Part shown: piece after piece, positions 1 through 6,287 of the stretch | Numbering within the stretch: position 1 is the stretch's first letter | How the letters are laid out: each line of letters opens with the position of its first letter | Notes under the pieces: generated by a model | Databases searched by the model: none | Told to the model about the DNA's origin: nothing | The model's input: the letters and a program-made list of their open reading frames with translations, nothing else | Translations under genes and position numbers: made by a program | Virus record (IMG/VR): IMGVR_UViG_2695420792_000001 | Span: 1 to 6,287 of that record | DNA: 6,287 nucleotides | Direction: 5' to 3' (one strand) | Source: a virus | Taxonomy: Monodnaviria > Loebvirae > Hofneiviricota > Faserviricetes > Tubulavirales > Inoviridae

Positions 1-84
1 TTCGGGGGAAAAACGAGTATTTTTAGTCATCCTGTTTACCTCTTTCTCAGGAAGTTTAGTCTCCAGGATTCCCGGGGCGGTTCA
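1..84 (-). mobile_element. Partial IS3-family insertion sequence (IS629/IS1203-like), orfA-proximal terminal inverted repeat end; element body extends leftwards out of the window
   Basis: Bases 1-84 are the exact reverse complement of 5960-6043, which contains the terminal repeat TGAACCGCCCCGGGAATCCTGGAGA and the start of the transposase OrfA ([11 protein letters not shown]...). The element terminus is at position 84 (…TCA on the + strand). Confidence 0.85.
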
Positions 85-118
85 GGTTTCGATATCGATT
101 AAAGGTTCGATTCTGAAA

Positions 119-1048
119 ATGTCGGGAAATCCATCCCGATGGAACAGACTGGACAATTTGTTTGGTCACACTTCTGTTGATGCCTGTGTGCAGGTATACA
201 ACCGGATCCTGAATGACCTTGGTCTGCCGGAATTCACAAAATGTACGAAATTGTGGCAGAGACAGGCAAGTGAAACTGAAAAGGCCGGAACGGTTACTGA
301 TGGCGCATGTATTCGTGAAATTCACATTACATCCAACCGAACAGTCGGAGCAGATAATGTAGATGACTATATATCGGGCCTTTCAACATTACGGTATCGC
401 AATAGTGAGCCGCGATTACACAGCAACGGTAAATCAGTTGACTGGCTATCCAAAAAAGGAAACGCCTTGCTCATTTATCCGACTGTATATAATAAAGCAC
501 ATGAAATTAAGCTTCACTCCCTTAATAAAATAAAGAATAAATTCGGGGATTCATCAGCTGAAGTTTCATACATCAAAAAGATTATTGATTTCTGTCAGGA
601 ACAGGGCGTAGTCAGATTTGAGCAAAAACTTAAATCCCGGTATCTGCAACGTAACCATCTTATTTACTGGGGGCTTTCCGACTATTCAATACTCAATAAT
701 TTACATGATGATTTTTTAGCTCTTGATAAAAAGCTTATGGTGACGTCGATGGATTTTGAAACGATTAGTGAACATTTAATCAGTGAAGGCATTGTTGACT
801 CAACTCGATCAGCGAATACCACTGCGATGTATGCTATCCAGTGGATGCACGGTCACTCATTTGATTTTTCTAAAACACAGGTGCAAACCCATCGTGCCAG
901 GCTTAGAAAAATAGGTATTGACATTGCTCAGCGATGTAATATTTCCAAATTTAGCCCCGTTATTGTTAAGAAAGTGAGAGAAGTATCAGTAAGTGAATGC
1001 TTTATTCCATCATGGTATGTGAAACCACGTTATTTGCATGTTGCATAA
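119..1048 (+). CDS. Replication initiation protein (gene II-like), 5'-truncated by the IS insertion; reading frame is open upstream to the IS junction at 85 and into the IS, so Met119 is not the native start
   Basis: Large ORF immediately upstream of the gene V homologue, as in the Ff gene order. The frame has no stop between position 29 and 1048, so it runs across the IS junction. It contains a Y-x3-Y-x-K motif (IYPTVYNK, nt 476-496) reminiscent of catalytic tyrosine motifs in rolling-circle initiators. No direct sequence alignment is possible from memory. Confidence 0.55.
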   Translation: MSGNPSRWNRLDNLFGHTSVDACVQVYNRILNDLGLPEFTKCTKLWQRQASETEKAGTVTDGACIREIHITSNRTVGADNVDDYISGLSTLRYRNSEPRLHSNGKSVDWLSKKGNALLIYPTVYNKAHEIKLHSLNKIKNKFGDSSAEVSYIKKIIDFCQEQGVVRFEQKLKSRYLQRNHLIYWGLSDYSILNNLHDDFLALDKKLMVTSMDFETISEHLISEGIVDSTRSANTTAMYAIQWMHGHSFDFSKTQVQTHRARLRKIGIDIAQRCNISKFSPVIVKKVREVSVSECFIPSWYVKPRYLHVA

Positions 1049-1060
1049 GAGGATATTTAA

Positions 1061-1348
1061 ATGATTAAGATTGAAATTAAACAGTCTCAGGCCATTGCCG
1101 ATACGCGTTCTGGCGTGTCGAAGTCGACCGGGCAGGCGTATACAATTAATGAGCAGTCTGCATATATTTTTCTTGGCCAGGATTATCCACAACTCTTCAA
1201 GTTGAATCTTGACGCGGGTCAGGCACCATACCCGGCGGGATTATATACATTACATCCATCCAGTATTTACGTCGGTGATTTCCAGAAATTACGGGTAGGA
1301 AGAATCGTTCTGATTCCATATCAGGAAAATAAAGAACAGACTAAATAA
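1061..1348 (+). CDS. ssDNA-binding protein, Ff gene V protein homologue
   Basis: The 95-aa product MIKIEIKQSQA..TRSGVS...YTINEQ..Y..LG..YP.L.K..LD.GQ.PY..GLYT.H.SS..VG.F aligns along most of its length with recalled M13 gVp (MIKVEIKPSQAQFTTRSGVSRQGKPYSLNEQ...GLYTVHLSSFKVGQF). RBS AAGAGGA sits about 8 nt upstream. Confidence 0.9.
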   Translation: MIKIEIKQSQAIADTRSGVSKSTGQAYTINEQSAYIFLGQDYPQLFKLNLDAGQAPYPAGLYTLHPSSIYVGDFQKLRVGRIVLIPYQENKEQTK

Positions 1349-1357
1349 GGTATCGCT

Positions 1358-1576
1358 ATGGCTTCTCAGAATATAATGACTGGTAAGATTTGTGATGGCA
1401 ATACTGAGCAGAACTGCCAGATAATAACATTAAATTCCTCTGAGTTGCCATATCAGCAGCTCCCTCCGGCAGAAGATATTGCACTGGTATGGGGAACTGC
1501 TTTTACCTCTGTAATCGTCCTTTATTTAGTATCACACTGTATTGGACTCGTTTTAAATATGATAAAGAGAGCCTAA
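1358..1576 (+). CDS. Small protein with C-terminal hydrophobic segment, in the position of Ff genes VII/IX (putative minor virion cap protein)
   Basis: 72-aa ORF between the gene V and gene VIII homologues. It has a hydrophilic N-terminal half and one C-terminal hydrophobic helix (ALVWGTAFTSVIVLYLVSHCIGLVL). An AGG motif lies upstream. The call rests on synteny only. Confidence 0.4.
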   Translation: MASQNIMTGKICDGNTEQNCQIITLNSSELPYQQLPPAEDIALVWGTAFTSVIVLYLVSHCIGLVLNMIKRA

Positions 1577-1578
1577 TT

Positions 1579-1800
1579 ATGAAAAAGACCATTTTGAAAT
1601 CAGCTGTTGTTATTGCTTCCGTAGTACCTTTTCTGGCTAATGCAGCAGAGTCTGCCGGAGTGGATTTTACTGCATTGACTAATGCAGTGTCATTCGACAG
1701 TGTAATTGTGGCAATTATGTCCGTAGCCGGCATTTTGGTTGGTCTTTATGCCTCCATTGCCGGGGCAAAAACAGTTCTGCGTATGATCCGTGGGGCCTGA
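1579..1800 (+). CDS. Major coat protein precursor (gene VIII-like), 73 aa
   Basis: MKKTILKSAVVIASVVPFLANA is a signal peptide with an A-x-A cleavage site. The mature part has an acidic N-terminus (AESAGVDF), a hydrophobic core and a basic C-terminus (KTVLRMIRGA). Length equals the 73-aa M13 pVIII precursor. I prefer the ATG at 1579 to the ORF-track start at 1489, which would overlap the preceding gene. Confidence 0.8.
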   Translation: MKKTILKSAVVIASVVPFLANAAESAGVDFTALTNAVSFDSVIVAIMSVAGILVGLYASIAGAKTVLRMIRGA

Positions 1801-1807
1801 TAATACG

Positions 1808-1825
1808 GGCAGGGGAAACCCTGCC
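1808..1825 (+). terminator. Stem-loop downstream of the major coat protein gene (GGCAGGG-GAAA-CCCTGCC), candidate intrinsic terminator
   Basis: A perfect 7-bp GC-rich stem with a GAAA tetraloop begins 8 nt after the gene VIII stop. The downstream T tract is weak (TTCAGGAGTTTCTG). Ff phages carry a terminator at this position between genes VIII and III. Confidence 0.45.
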
Positions 1826-1922
1826 TTCAGGAGTTTCTGTGATATTACATTTCTGGCTAATTACCTGTTTTCTCTGGGGTCTTCTTTGTGCCTGGGCAGT
1901 TATAAAAGGATTAGGAGGGTAA

Positions 1923-3188
1923 ATGAAAACTCTTTTAATTGCATTGTTGTTATCTATCATTAGCTTTTATTCATACAGTGCAGAGAACGCAGCTGTTATT
2001 AATCAGACCATTTCAGGAACCATTAAAAACAAAATTACACAGCGTGGTTTCTCAGCGAATGATCCTCGATACTACGGAACATTAAAAGGTATTTCAGGTT
2101 ATCTAAATTCTACCGCTTCAGGTTCGAAAGCTTATACCGTTGCAGGTGTCTCTGGTCGTTCGTGGTTATCAGTTGGACTCAGAGGGGCTTTGTTAAGCCG
2201 CGGTACGCTTATAGCTCTTGCCGCTTCCGGTGCGGTGGCATGGCTAATTGAGACTGAGGACTCCGTACAAATCAAAGTAAAAGAAATAACGGGAGAGCAG
2301 GGTGTTAAAGGGTTTTACTGGAATATTGGCGCAGAAAGCTATGTTACAGCAACTGAGGGAGCTCAGTCGATATGCCAGCATAATCCGGCGTTCTGTCAGA
2401 CATACATAGTTGAGCAATATAATGCAGACCCGACAAGGTCTGATTTAAGAACCATCAAATTTTATATTGATTCATCTAAAACACAGCTTTGGGCATCACG
2501 AACTGCAAACCTTGTTTCCTGCGGTACAAATAAGGTTATGCCTACATGTCAGCCTGATTATGTGCCGGGTAGTAATGAAGTAATTAAAACCGTTAGCGTA
2601 CAGGATGCTATTAATAGCATTTCAGATACGGAAATGCAGACAGATCTTTCGCCAGAAGTTATTTCTGATGTTGTAAATAATGCATGGCAAAAAGCAGCCT
2701 CCGAAGCAGGGTATTCTGGTTTTGCATACGACCACACCAGACCAGTGACAGCGCGTGATGTAACTGCTTCAACTGGTGCTGCAAAGCCCGCTGTATCTGA
2801 CTTTCTCAAACCGTCAGACAAACCCGATTTTACACTACCTGCTGACACAACAGGGACAACACCAACCAATCCATCGACAGGAGAACAGGTTAATCTTGGT
2901 GATGATCCTGGTATTGGGCCGCCTGAACTGGAAAATATACCTGCAGGTACTGAAATTTTATCTCCATTATTATCATTCAACCCCTTTGAAGATTCAGCCG
3001 ATGCACTTAATGCAGAAAGCGAAAGAATTAAATATGCGGAGTGTCCAAAACCTGTACTGGATGTTTTTAACGGACAATATAAGTTAGAAACACATTGTAC
3101 ATTATTAAATAATAACGCTGCGATGATTGGTGTTATTTTTCTGTTCATTTACTCAATAGCAGCGTTCAGAATTATCCTTTCTGCATAA
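1923..3188 (+). CDS. Adsorption/minor coat protein (gene III-like), 421 aa
   Basis: Strong RBS AGGAGG about 5 nt upstream. The signal peptide MKTLLIALLLSIISFYSYSAE resembles the recalled M13 pIII leader (MKKLLFAIPLVVPFYSHSAE). The C-terminus has two Cys (ECPKP...THCTLL) followed by a membrane anchor (AAMIGVIFLFIYSIAAFRIIL), as in M13 pIII. A Pro/Thr/Gly-rich linker lies in the middle. Size matches pIII (424 aa). Confidence 0.85.
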   Translation: MKTLLIALLLSIISFYSYSAENAAVINQTISGTIKNKITQRGFSANDPRYYGTLKGISGYLNSTASGSKAYTVAGVSGRSWLSVGLRGALLSRGTLIALAASGAVAWLIETEDSVQIKVKEITGEQGVKGFYWNIGAESYVTATEGAQSICQHNPAFCQTYIVEQYNADPTRSDLRTIKFYIDSSKTQLWASRTANLVSCGTNKVMPTCQPDYVPGSNEVIKTVSVQDAINSISDTEMQTDLSPEVISDVVNNAWQKAASEAGYSGFAYDHTRPVTARDVTASTGAAKPAVSDFLKPSDKPDFTLPADTTGTTPTNPSTGEQVNLGDDPGIGPPELENIPAGTEILSPLLSFNPFEDSADALNAESERIKYAECPKPVLDVFNGQYKLETHCTLLNNNAAMIGVIFLFIYSIAAFRIILSA

Positions 3189-3197
3189 AGGTGATTT

Positions 3198-3485
3198 ATG
3201 TTTGGCATCATGACCTCTGTTTTATATGGCGTTCTTGGGTTTTTATTGCGCTCAGTTATTGTGAAGTTTACGGTGTTTTTTGCATTGTATTTTATTGTGC
3301 AGGAATTCGTGCCGCTTATTCTCGATATGGTTAATCGCCAACTCCCACTTCTTGCGTTAATTTCAAGTATTCCAGATAGCCTGAAATATTTCTTCTCTGT
3401 TTTTAAAGTTATAGATGGGATTAACATAATACTTTCAGCTTTTGTGACTCGCTTTATTATTCGTCGAATTCCGGTAATAGGATAA
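3198..3485 (+). CDS. Minor coat protein (gene VI-like), hydrophobic 95 aa
   Basis: Highly hydrophobic small protein immediately after gene III and before gene I, matching Ff synteny. RBS AAGGTGA upstream. Confidence 0.7.
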   Translation: MFGIMTSVLYGVLGFLLRSVIVKFTVFFALYFIVQEFVPLILDMVNRQLPLLALISSIPDSLKYFFSVFKVIDGINIILSAFVTRFIIRRIPVIG

Positions 3486-3489
3486 TTTT

Positions 3490-4515
3490 ATGGCTGTATC
3501 ATTGTATATGGGTGTGATGGGGAGCGGTAAAACATACGAGGTTGTTTACAGTGTTATTATCCCTGCGGTTTCAGCAGGCCGCCGTGTAATCACCAATATC
3601 AAAGGGATAAATGAAGAGAAAATACATGAGTATTGTCGTTCTAAATTCAAGACTAAGCAGCCTGGTCGTGTTGTTTTCGCATCGACGGATGAAATATTAA
3701 AGGATGATTTCTTCCCTTTTTACTCTGATGATGAATCTTCAGAACAAAAAGCAGCATTTTGTGAATATGGTGATCTGATTTGTCTTGATGAATTATGGTC
3801 AATATGGCCATCGGACTCAAAACTATCTGAGGCACATAAAAGATTTATTTCAATGCACCGTCATATGACACATGCTGTTAGTGGGGTATCATGTGATTTG
3901 GTCATCATCAATCAGGGTGTAGATGGTGTACCCCGGTATCTTAAAGAGCGTATTGAATCGACATACCGGATGACCAAACTAAAATCTTTGGGGCTATCAA
4001 AGTCATATCGTGTCGATGTTTTTTCTGGTGCCAAAGTATTCAAAAATAATAAAGTCAGTACTCGTAACTATCAGTACAAAAAAGCCGTTTTTGAATTATA
4101 CAAATCTTATGAAACCACTAACGGAATGGAAGCGACAACAGACTCTAGACAAAACGTTTTTTCATCCGCCTTTCTTTGGGTGAAAATTGCATTTTTATTA
4201 TTTATTGTACTGGCTTCTATATATTCAATAAGAACGGTCTGGGTGGATATTAGAGGAGAGTCAGTACCAGAGCCGAAACATACCGAACCGGAGGTTGTAC
4301 TGCCTTCATCAGAAAAGATTGCGAAACCTGATGCCCCGTACTCAAAGCGCTGGCGTATTGCCGGGGAGTTAAAATCAGATTATGTCAGCAAGGTTGTTCT
4401 TACAGACAGCAATGGTCGGTTTAGAACGCTACCGGCAAATCAGTTCGACGGAGAAGGTTTTACTTTAAGTGGAATCATTGATGGTGAAATTGTCACCTAT
4501 TTTACTGGGGGTTAA
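3490..4515 (+). CDS. Phage assembly protein pI (Zot-family P-loop NTPase), 341 aa
   Basis: The N-terminus MAVSLYMGVMGSGKTYEVV carries a Walker A motif (GxxGSGKT) and resembles recalled M13 pI (MAVYFVTGKLGSGKT). A single transmembrane helix (FLWVKIAFLLFIVLASIYSI) lies about two thirds along the protein. It sits directly upstream of the secretin gene. Confidence 0.9.
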   Translation: MAVSLYMGVMGSGKTYEVVYSVIIPAVSAGRRVITNIKGINEEKIHEYCRSKFKTKQPGRVVFASTDEILKDDFFPFYSDDESSEQKAAFCEYGDLICLDELWSIWPSDSKLSEAHKRFISMHRHMTHAVSGVSCDLVIINQGVDGVPRYLKERIESTYRMTKLKSLGLSKSYRVDVFSGAKVFKNNKVSTRNYQYKKAVFELYKSYETTNGMEATTDSRQNVFSSAFLWVKIAFLLFIVLASIYSIRTVWVDIRGESVPEPKHTEPEVVLPSSEKIAKPDAPYSKRWRIAGELKSDYVSKVVLTDSNGRFRTLPANQFDGEGFTLSGIIDGEIVTYFTGG

Positions 4516-4516
4516 T

Positions 4517-5728
4517 ATGAAATTATTTTATATCATAATAATGGTATTTATGATTCCACCTGCATTATCAAAAGGCGTTATACTGAATCTCTCAGGATTA
4601 ACGCTTAATGATGCCATTACTTTGTTTTATACTGAAGTTATGAGAAAACCGTTCATGGTTTCTCCTGAACTTATCACGGACAAACGACAAGTTAATTTCA
4701 ATATTACGCCAGATATGGATGAGTATACGTTTATTATGCGTTATCTCCAGAATGCCGGAGTCTCTGTAGCCAGAAAAAATGGTGTGGATTACTTTTATCT
4801 CCAGGAGAAAAAAGTATACGAAGCCCCGAAATATTCTTTTGTTTACACACCACAGTACCGTTCTGTTGCTTATCTGGCTGATATTCTTCAGTCACAAGTG
4901 AGCGGGTCATTTTCAAATGGTGGGCAAATAGGGCATGGCGATGTTTCTCCTGCGATGATTAAAGACAATACCGCATCCGATTTTTTGAGCAGAAATGGGG
5001 ATGTACTTGTTTTTTACGGTACGAAAAAAGACATTCAGCGGGTCGAAGATTTGCTTCCTCTTATCGACCGGGCCGCCGAAGAAGTTATTGTCGCCGGGTA
5101 CGTGTTTGAGGTTCAGACGTCTGAGCGAAATGGTTCTGGCCTGGCACTGGCTGCCAAACTTATGTCGGGAAAATTCACAATAGAAACGGGTACTGCACAA
5201 GGACTCAGCAACTTTGTCCGTTTCAGTTCTGGATCGCTCGATGCACTTTATGAGTTGTTCAGAACAGACAGCCGTTTTCACGTCGTCAGTTCGCCACAAT
5301 TGCGGGTCAGAAATGGCTCTAAAGCATCATTTTCTGTGGGATCTGACGTGCCGGTACTCGGTCAGGTCAGCTATGTTGATGGTCGTCCGGTTCAGTCCAT
5401 TGATTATCGTTCAAGTGGCGTAATTTTTAACGTTCAGCCGCAAATCCGGGCTGCTACGATTGACCTTAATATTCATCAGCAACTGTCTAATTTTGCAAAA
5501 ACAGAGACTGGGGTGAATAACAGCCCGACGCTCATTAAACGGGAGGTGAACACCGATGTTTCGCTCAAGGATGGCGACATAATTTTACTTGGTGGTCTGG
5601 CTGAGAATAAAGACAGTAATGCAGATACGGGCCTGTCATTTTTGCCGTCATGGTTCGGAACAACGGCAACTGAAAAAGCAAAAACAGACATCATTATTGT
5701 ACTTCAGGCCAGAAAAATCAGGCGGTGA
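4517..5728 (+). CDS. Secretin, phage pIV-like outer-membrane export channel, about 403 aa
   Basis: Signal peptide MKLFYIIIMVFMIPPALS. The C-terminal secretin-type region (VSLKDGDIILLGGLAENKDSNADTGLSFLPSWFG) resembles the recalled pIV C-terminus (…MDGQPLLLGGL…GVPFLSKIP…). I chose the start at 4517 because it follows the gene I stop (4513-4515) and a GGGGG RBS; the ORF-track start at 4469 would lie inside gene I. Confidence 0.88.
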   Translation: MKLFYIIIMVFMIPPALSKGVILNLSGLTLNDAITLFYTEVMRKPFMVSPELITDKRQVNFNITPDMDEYTFIMRYLQNAGVSVARKNGVDYFYLQEKKVYEAPKYSFVYTPQYRSVAYLADILQSQVSGSFSNGGQIGHGDVSPAMIKDNTASDFLSRNGDVLVFYGTKKDIQRVEDLLPLIDRAAEEVIVAGYVFEVQTSERNGSGLALAAKLMSGKFTIETGTAQGLSNFVRFSSGSLDALYELFRTDSRFHVVSSPQLRVRNGSKASFSVGSDVPVLGQVSYVDGRPVQSIDYRSSGVIFNVQPQIRAATIDLNIHQQLSNFAKTETGVNNSPTLIKREVNTDVSLKDGDIILLGGLAENKDSNADTGLSFLPSWFGTTATEKAKTDIIIVLQARKIRR

Positions 5729-5959
5729 GAGCAGGGCGGCCAGCCCCGCAGCTCCGTGAGGAGCTGGCCGTACTGAGACACCGACTGTTGATTGATTGTG
5801 TAAATCATGAACGGCGTGATTTGCGCATGCGCAAATTTCTCGTCAATTCTTATGGGGAATCTATGGCTACAAAGTTGAAGTTTATCCGACTGAAAATTGA
5901 AGATGAGTTAATCCAGCCGGTTAATAATCTGGCAGGCATTCGCGATGAGTTAAAGGCCG
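5729..5959 (+). promoter_or_regulatory. Remnant of the phage intergenic region, truncated at 5959/5960 by the IS insertion; contains a GC-rich dyad and a perfect 18-bp palindrome
   Basis: Located after the gene IV stop, where Ff phages carry a terminator, the packaging signal and the origins. Hairpin CAGCTCC-GTGA-GGAGCTG at 5749-5766, or the alternative CGGCCAGC/GCTGGCCG pairing at 5737-5770. Perfect palindrome ATTTGCGCATGCGCAAAT at 5819-5836. Confidence 0.5.
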
Positions 5960-6287
5960 TGAACCGCCCCGGGAATCCTGGAGACTAAACTTCCTGAGAA
6001 AGAGGTAAACAGGATGACTAAAAATACTCGTTTTTCCCCCGAAGTCCGTCAACGGGCAGTCCGTATGGTTCTGGAAAGTCAGGATGAATATGACTCACAG
6101 TGGGCGGCAATTTGTTCCATTGCCCCAAAGATTGGCTGTACGCCGGAGACTCTGCGTGTCTGGGTTCGCCAGCATGAGCGGGATACCGGGGCGGTGATGG
6201 TGGGCTCACCAGCGCTGAACGTCAGCGTCTGAAAGAGCTGGAACGTGAAAATCGTGAACTGCGCCGCAGTAACGATATCCTTCGCCA
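5960..6287 (+). mobile_element. Partial IS3-family insertion sequence (IS629/IS1203-like), orfA-proximal end; element continues beyond the window
   Basis: Terminal repeat starts TGAACCGCCCCGGG at 5960. OrfA begins at 6014 with [23 protein letters not shown]…[18 protein letters not shown], which matches my recollection of IS629 OrfA. Identical over 84 bp to the inverted copy at 1-84. Confidence 0.9.
6014..6232 (+). CDS. IS3-family transposase OrfA (helix-turn-helix N-terminal part); frame is interrupted before the leucine-zipper segment, which continues in the -1 frame from 6178 to the window end
   Basis: The ORF encodes the HTH-like N-terminus and stops at 6230-6232. The leucine-zipper-like sequence [19 protein letters not shown] is read in the -1 frame from 6229 onward. 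The two frames overlap at 6178-6232, around a G4 run at 6188-6191. Confidence 0.7.

Follow-up and report, generated by a model that had tools for sequence, protein, structure and literature searches.

The 6,287-bp stretch analysed here, hereafter the window, is the entire draft-assembly contig CYEH01000056.1 (NCBI GCA_001284685.2; IMG/VR record IMGVR_UViG_2695420792_000001). It contains filamentous phage genes between two partial copies of one insertion sequence (IS), and the first of these genes, the replication initiator gene II (pII/G2P), lacks its 5' end. Positions 1-84 and 5960-6043 of the window are exact reverse complements, and both IS ends consist of a TGAACCGCCCC... terminus, which at greater length reads TGAACCGCCCCGGGAATCC..., followed by the start of orfA. 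In E. coli annotation this IS3-family element is named IS629/IS1203, and copies occur in thousands of replicons; the annotated ones share 97-99.7% identity with the terminal sequence and orfA found here. On the minus strand, positions 1-84 form the left-end terminus (the left inverted repeat, IRL, and the start of orfA), pointing inward, as seen from the reverse complement and from the alignment to an annotated IS3-family copy from its TGAACCGCCCC terminus. Positions 5960-6287 on the plus strand hold the second copy of the same IS, in the opposite orientation and also with its IRL inward, aligned to an annotated copy with 99.7% identity over 328 nt. The succession of terminal repeat and orfA is that of the IS3 family, and a 72-aa open reading frame (ORF) gives a weak match to HTH_Tnp_1.

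Phage homology spans window positions 82-5959 in every relative, and the IS joins the phage DNA exactly at its terminal base (TGAACC...). The TCA at 82-84 is common to the IS end and the phage, so that the left junction can be placed from 81/82 to 84/85. Of each IS copy the contig contains one end, 84 nt of the left and 328 nt of the right, and target duplications are unreadable. The right copy in the window is frameshifted: its orfA has a run of four G residues at 6188-6191 where the reference copies have five (328 versus 329 nt, 99.7% identity), which shifts the frame after ...HERDTG. Either this IS copy is defective or the run is an assembly homopolymer error.

Gene II remnant and extent of the loss

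The remnant comprises codons 51-371 and the stop codon of gene II (window 83-1048, plus strand), with codons 1-50 missing, as established from Pfam matches, from alignment to the prophage of strain 6EVA (locus L001) and from 100% identity to the intact alleles of two other loci, L010 and L012. In strain 6EVA, gene II has 371 codons (L001:5849-6964); window position 85 corresponds to L001:6001, and codon 51 starts at window position 83. The 321 retained phage-derived codons (83-1045) run from Q51 to A371, while the 50 missing ones run from M1 to D50, ending ...TTTTTGCGATCAGGT. Upstream of its TAA at 1046-1048, the gene II frame is free of stops back to window position 2. Its first ATG, GTG or TTG is the ATG at position 119 (Met119), which encodes residue 63 of the 371, and the longest translatable ORF extends from this internal Met63 over 309 aa (119-1048, plus strand). 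If the left IS copy has the sequence of the right one, a stop closes this frame 29 codons before the junction, and no start precedes Met119.

At the domain level, G2P_X_C matches with 91.8 bits (cut-off 25; 4e-26) over profile positions 1-86 of 88, and the corresponding domain, residues 282-366 of the intact protein, is retained at window positions 776-1030 (plus strand). The Phage_CRI match (31.5 bits, cut-off 21.7; 1.8e-7) starts at profile position 64 of 232, the N-terminal domain being incomplete in the remnant; in an intact relative, residue 47 already falls on profile position 45. The codon for Tyr186 is also retained (488-490, plus strand). This residue is invariant in 36 homologues, and aligning the family profile to pII of M13 with hhalign places it opposite Tyr-197, whose catalytic role is documented in PMC5405960, citing Asano 1999. 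The pII of the Ff phages (M13/f1/fd) belongs to the same Pfam families (PF05144 and PF05155) and its gene likewise lies upstream of gene V. The profile match is local, with Y186 on Tyr-197 and VRFEQKLKSRYLQ on VRFEARIKTRYLK, and covers only 71 columns at an hhalign probability of 55%. The Ff protein is longer (410 versus 371 aa), and the score against TIGR01629 is 27.7, below the cut-off of 29. The codon of the invariant Met273, a candidate gene X-like internal start, stands at 749-751 (plus strand). Gene V itself, a Phage_DNA_bind ORF for a gV-like single-stranded DNA (ssDNA)-binding protein (1061-1348, plus strand), begins 12 nt past the gene II stop, where it is expected.

Comparison with the family places the native start upstream of everything that the window retains. 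Among 725 database homologues, the best 120 are nearly all 371-374 aa long. We aligned the start sites of 36 homologues from Enterobacterales, Pasteurellaceae, Shewanella, Aeromonas and others: all 36 have MFFDWL at the N-terminus, and nine positions within residues 1-50 are invariant (E9, Q10, P17, G32, H44, G46, S47, C49 and D50). In 80 IMG/VR loci, the tblastn alignment starts at query residues 1-6, except in cut contigs, and gene callers give 371 aa in all relatives whose upstream frame is intact. Nucleotide homology to phage If1 (blastn) begins exactly at the upstream ATG, which is preceded by the Shine-Dalgarno sequence GGGAGA; Met119 has no such sequence at the proper spacing.

The original prediction, made from the letters of the window without database searches, is largely borne out. 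It had read a II-like gene truncated at its 5' end by the IS, which the Pfam matches and the intact 371-aa relatives confirm, and a frame open across the junction from position 29, which is in fact open from position 2. Its junction at 84/85 is correct to within 3 nt, its count of about 320 remaining phage-derived codons is close to the 321 found, and Met119, which it took merely for the first in-frame ATG, is an internal methionine. It had also named the result that would overturn it, namely that Met119 is the native N-terminus of the relatives, and the 36 aligned starts all lie upstream. The estimate of about 90 missing N-terminal residues was too high, exactly 50 being absent, because the comparison with the 410-aa Ff protein is misleading for a family of 371 aa.

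Prophage context and insertion history

The same prophage occurs in nine of 5,426 complete E. coli genomes searched with megablast (about 85% identity or more), in all nine at 99.5% identity or above. Intact members of this prophage family lie between hipA and the ydeQRS fimbrial genes, by the canonical E. coli dif 28-mer. In 15 loci, an exact copy of the 28-mer is found about 310 nt past the last phage ORF (L001:12891-12918; also in L004, L005 and L013), and a dif-like sequence is present at the end of L010 (L010:1-60). The window itself has neither the host dif nor a dif-like attP and does not adjoin dif. Two or three tandem prophage copies are present in several genomes, and what lies between the last ORF and the repressor gene is a variable module, either a 358-aa ORF or a DUF2971 and an MtlR-like ORF. 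In adjoining dif, and in several cases in being tandem, these relatives resemble the dif/XerCD-integrating inoviruses of Enterobacterales (UPphi, Ypfphi/CUS-1, CTXphi), of which UPphi and Ypfphi show the same dif-adjacent, tandem behaviour (PMC7307601). UPphi901 is reported in more than 200 published genomes; the prophage described here is rarer and probably distinct.

The order of events is suggested by L010, a contig obtained in an independent sequencing run (ERR14205758). It is identical to the window at 100% of nucleotides over positions 82-5988 and has the same right IS junction, and its left side carries an intact gene II, the repressor gene, the origin-like hairpins and a dif-like end. 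We infer that the right IS was inserted first and the gene II insertion came second, because this otherwise identical prophage has the right junction but an intact gene II. The gene II insertion would be recent, because the remnant shows no further decay. The left IS would then have entered between codons 50 and 51 of the 371-codon initiator gene, parting codons 51-371 from the first 50 codons, from a strong Shine-Dalgarno sequence and a promoter-like site, from a helix-turn-helix (HTH) repressor gene and from a probable (+) origin hairpin. Taken together, the data support, with a probability of about 0.85 for the explanation as a whole, the view that window positions 82-5959 are 5.9 kb from the interior of a filamentous (inovirus) E. 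coli prophage of the dif-integrating type, lying between two inverted, inward-facing IS629/IS1203-like copies.

The best-surviving alternative, itself improbable, is that the 5.9-kb segment makes up a composite transposon together with the inverted IS copies, or that the arrangement arose by IS-mediated inversion or deletion; the 5' end of gene II, the repressor gene and the origin would then not be adjacent and may be absent from the genome. Two IS copies do bracket a passenger here. They are inverted, as in composites of the Tn5/Tn10 type, with the IRL of each facing the phage segment, and the contig shows nothing outside them. However, it is most economical to assume two simple insertions in succession, and these suffice because L010 has the right junction in place within a dif-linked prophage whose left side is intact. 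Moreover, the visible right copy has a frameshifted orfA, and no second genomic context was found; in the plasmids of PLSDB, the IS is present and the phage was not found. By a more far-reaching reading, which we consider very improbable, the IS-bracketed block would be a retained or mobilisable module, whether a composite transposon with a phage export apparatus, a domesticated secretion and assembly system, or a superinfection-interference locus acting through a truncated pII/pX-like product. The block carries the ssDNA-binding protein, coat proteins, a Zot-like pI and a pIV secretin, without a complete initiator, origin, repressor or attP.

The downstream phage genes (1061-5728) have the same lengths as in the relatives. 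All on the plus strand, they comprise, after gene V, ORF72 (1358-1576), a coat-B-like gene (1579-1800), a 421-aa ORF in the gIII position (1923-3188), a DUF2523 gene in the gVI position (3198-3485), Zot/pI (3490-4515) and the secretin/pIV gene (4517-5728). Nucleotide identity to L012 is 100% as well, over window positions 82-5435. The coat, assembly and secretin genes are thus intact, as had been proposed, judged by identity to L010 (to window 5988) and L012 (to 5435).

The right cut differs from what the original prediction described, an intergenic region interrupted at 5959. Compared to L001:11779-12093, the cut at 5959/5960 falls within codon 33 of a 104-codon phage ORF (ORF104), of which the first 32 codons remain (5863-5959, plus strand), and the 134-nt spacer between gene IV and ORF104 is intact. 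The reading frame of the cut ORF is open into the IS, forming a fusion ORF of 87 or 41 aa; a database look-up of the 41-aa junction product gave no match. Lost to the right of the cut, relative to the other prophages, are the rest of ORF104, a HigA-like ORF, a 59-aa ORF, three TTTGCGCATGCGCAAA palindromes and the host dif junction. The sole remaining copy of this perfect 16-bp palindrome lies at 5820-5835 (no strand assigned), the other three of intact relatives being beyond the right IS. In L001, TTTGCGCATGCGCAAA occurs at 11736, 12111, 12585 and 12683, flanking ORF104, the HigA-like ORF and the 59-aa ORF, where zero occurrences are expected by chance, and a phage regulator may use it as an operator. 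Right after the secretin stop, the G+C-rich segment 5729-5790 is retained with its alternative inverted repeats GGCCAGC...GCTGGCC and CAGCTCC-GTGA-GGAGCTG, which could form a terminator or a hairpin of the packaging-signal type.

Promoter and candidate (+) origin

In intact relatives, a promoter-like TTGACA-17-TAGTAT (10/12 matches; L001:5765-5793) stands about 55 nt upstream of the gene II ATG. None was found in window positions 1-1100, in line with the displaced promoter of the original prediction; the counts from a scan of the whole window equal chance and are uninformative on internal promoters.

When the prophage is compared to If1 with blastn, a single conserved non-coding element appears (L001:5145-5201 against If1 5046-5101, 95% identical). 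Its core is a nearly invariant hairpin, GTTCGGG-[GTTCTGTNACA]-CCCGAAC-TTT, which matches the M13 nick hairpin, GTCCAC-[GTTCTTT/AATA]-GTGGAC (slash, nick position from PMC5405960), in geometry and in 8 of 11 loop bases. The hairpin occurs once per prophage copy in all relatives, and the window has none. With at most two mismatches, the core is present in 58 of the 80 IMG/VR loci, including loci whose pII is only 48-50% identical. In every case it lies on the coding strand, at a distance of 349-895 nt upstream of gene II (2248 nt in If1). Downstream of it lies a second, 7-bp hairpin of variable sequence with strong covariation: 96% of cells are paired, against 32-50% in slid controls, and 54 cells are double changes, against 15 in shuffles. 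The pair is located at L001:5150-5212, L010:1275-1339 and If1 (L003) 5046-5101, and a GCGAAGC mini-hairpin stands just upstream of the origin-like hairpin.

These features suggest that the hairpin pair is probably the (+) origin of the 371-aa pII family, including If1. A conserved nick hairpin next to a variable one would fit a conserved nick site combined with a phage-specific recognition site. The Ff-type origin core GTTCTTTAATAGTGGACTCTTGTTCC was not found, at up to eight mismatches, in the prophage or in If1. The position also differs, the Ff origin being directly between genes IV and II whereas the candidate here is upstream of the repressor gene. Since the origin-like hairpin lies beyond the HTH repressor gene, it would be displaced by the left IS and not by the right one.

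Among known phages, If1 (Infulavirus If1, NC_001954/U02303) shares with this prophage the placement of gene II directly upstream of gene V, the N-terminal 50 residues and the origin-like hairpin. Its gene II is 69% identical in nucleotides over the whole gene from the ATG, and 68% over window positions 86-969. It differs in being a free, non-integrating phage, and the rest of its genome is without nucleotide-level similarity. The If1 record labels gene II 'ORF320, hypothetical, homologous to R-pyocin', following a 'minor intergenic region' (L003 7316-7470). This region encodes MFFDWLTIEQDFGF...GSFCD in another frame, and one extra G (GATGGTTG, where GATGTTG is expected) splits the 371-codon gene; through this single extra base, the reference record mis-annotates gene II as a 320-aa hypothetical protein. 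We accordingly rejected 'ORF320' as a natural 320-aa initiator, its 50 N-terminal codons being present in another frame. The If1 frameshift falls within a few bases of the IS position in the window, apparently by coincidence.

Effect of the truncation

The AlphaFold2 model of an intact homologue (P0001) has a mean predicted local distance difference test (pLDDT) value of 89 and a predicted TM-score (pTM) of 0.81. Residues 1-50 are modelled as four beta-strands (2-11, 24-27, 34-38 and 42-47), and the IS junction falls between the fourth and fifth modelled strands. The model displays the crescent-shaped, TATA-binding-protein (TBP)-like beta-sheet fold of the Rep_trans superfamily. In this fold, the N-terminal strand is central in the sheet, and the catalytic metal is bound by three carboxylates, one of them contributed by D46 in RepDE and by D9 in RepSTK1; activity is lowered or abolished when any of these ligands is mutated, and Phage_CRI proteins are predicted to have the same arrangement (PMC4797284). 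By analogy, strand 2-11 (FFDWLTIEQD, with D4, E9 and D11 conserved) would be central to both the fold and the active site. The remnant is most likely inactive as a nicking initiator, because it has lost four N-terminal strands, the first of them central in the Rep_trans/TBP-like fold, and because the N-terminal acidic residue of RepDE and RepSTK1 is a metal ligand. In Ff, N-terminal gIIp mutations such as Met40Ile change origin use (PMC5405960).

Several points weigh against this interpretation. The proposed loss of function would depend on structural analogy, without a sequence link to the Rep_trans chains in the PDB. RepDE and RepSTK1 (PDB 4cwc and 4cij) show no detectable sequence similarity to the family: there is no PF02486 match, their chains were reached neither by phmmer nor by the family profile, and TM-scores are low (0.26-0.33). 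Searches by sequence for any solved structure gave only spurious matches to CR2 and filamin, which were rejected. The remnant still has its C-terminal domain and Y186, the tyrosine of catalytic type, and an intact second copy of gene II may exist elsewhere in the same genome, as tandem copies do in several relatives. Finally, the left junction is known from one draft assembly only, in a contig that ends within the IS on both sides, and scans for the exact junctions in GTDB species-representative genomes (left and right) and in JGI metagenomes gave no match. A look-up of the 347-aa junction product also gave no match, but it is uninformative, since the product on record has 348 aa and the query lacked one codon.

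If translated at all, the remnant could be read at most from the internal Met63, giving a product with Y186 and the C-terminal G2P_X domain but without the four N-terminal strands. It is conceivable, although a little less so than the composite transposon, that such a product is active, either Met63-371 or a gene X-like protein from Met273 serving as a regulator or dominant-negative inhibitor when related phages come in. The remnant keeps G2P_X_C in full, together with Y186 and the invariant Met273, and shows no decay; in M13, according to its annotation, translation of pX begins at an internal start codon in the gene II frame. However, no promoter-like site lies upstream of the remnant, and a recent insertion explains the lack of decay equally well.

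We regard it as very unlikely that the junction of the left IS with gene II is an assembly chimera and that the gene is intact in the real genome. A multi-copy repeat does lie at both contig ends, the left junction was not found in any other sample, and identical prophages with an intact gene II exist. Yet the join is precisely at the IS terminal base, as transposition predicts, and the equivalent right junction is confirmed independently in L010; a coexisting intact copy should, moreover, branch the assembly graph at 84/85.

Hardly credible at all is a native start at Met119, with the 309-aa ORF as a complete initiator and the IS upstream of the gene instead of within it: a 309-aa product is annotated in several IS-free relatives (L004-L009) and one database cluster (P0043) is 309 aa long, but L004, L005 and L008 have a 1-nt deletion within the first 50 codons, L007 has an N run there, and the L006 and L009 contigs end within gene II and are uninformative on the start, while the first 50 residues are among the best conserved of the family and are modelled as strands with high confidence, and both the If1 homology and the properly spaced Shine-Dalgarno sequence belong to the upstream ATG. 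A native Met63 start, as the 309-aa calls would have it, was rejected on the frameshifts or Ns upstream in L004, L005, L007 and L008. The 1-nt deletions within codons 1-50 are located in L004:554-812 and 9756-10014, L005:9756-10014 and 18958-19216, and L008:2043-2301; in L004 and L005 the missing base belongs to the T5 run of GGATCTTTTTGC, and every tandem copy visible there lacks it. Either the initiator has been inactivated repeatedly in resident prophages or the deletions are sequencing errors in homopolymers.

With the gene II insertion retained as the preferred explanation, rolling-circle replication could not be started from the contig as far as it shows, and the morphogenesis genes are intact. 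What is found here is an ordinary case of a gene inactivated by an IS, in a defective inovirus prophage of the dif type, and the gene family is already annotated as G2P. Prophage genes are routinely disrupted by IS elements in IS-rich E. coli, and by itself the finding is of little consequence. It is nevertheless a clean, datable example, in that an identical sibling prophage keeps gene II intact, and the case shows that two IS steps can remove the replication functions while the morphogenesis genes stay pristine. Of use beyond this case are the mis-annotation of gene II in the If1 record and the candidate origin, which would serve a large family of 371-aa pII proteins including that of If1 and those of many enterobacterial and other inoviruses in IMG/VR.

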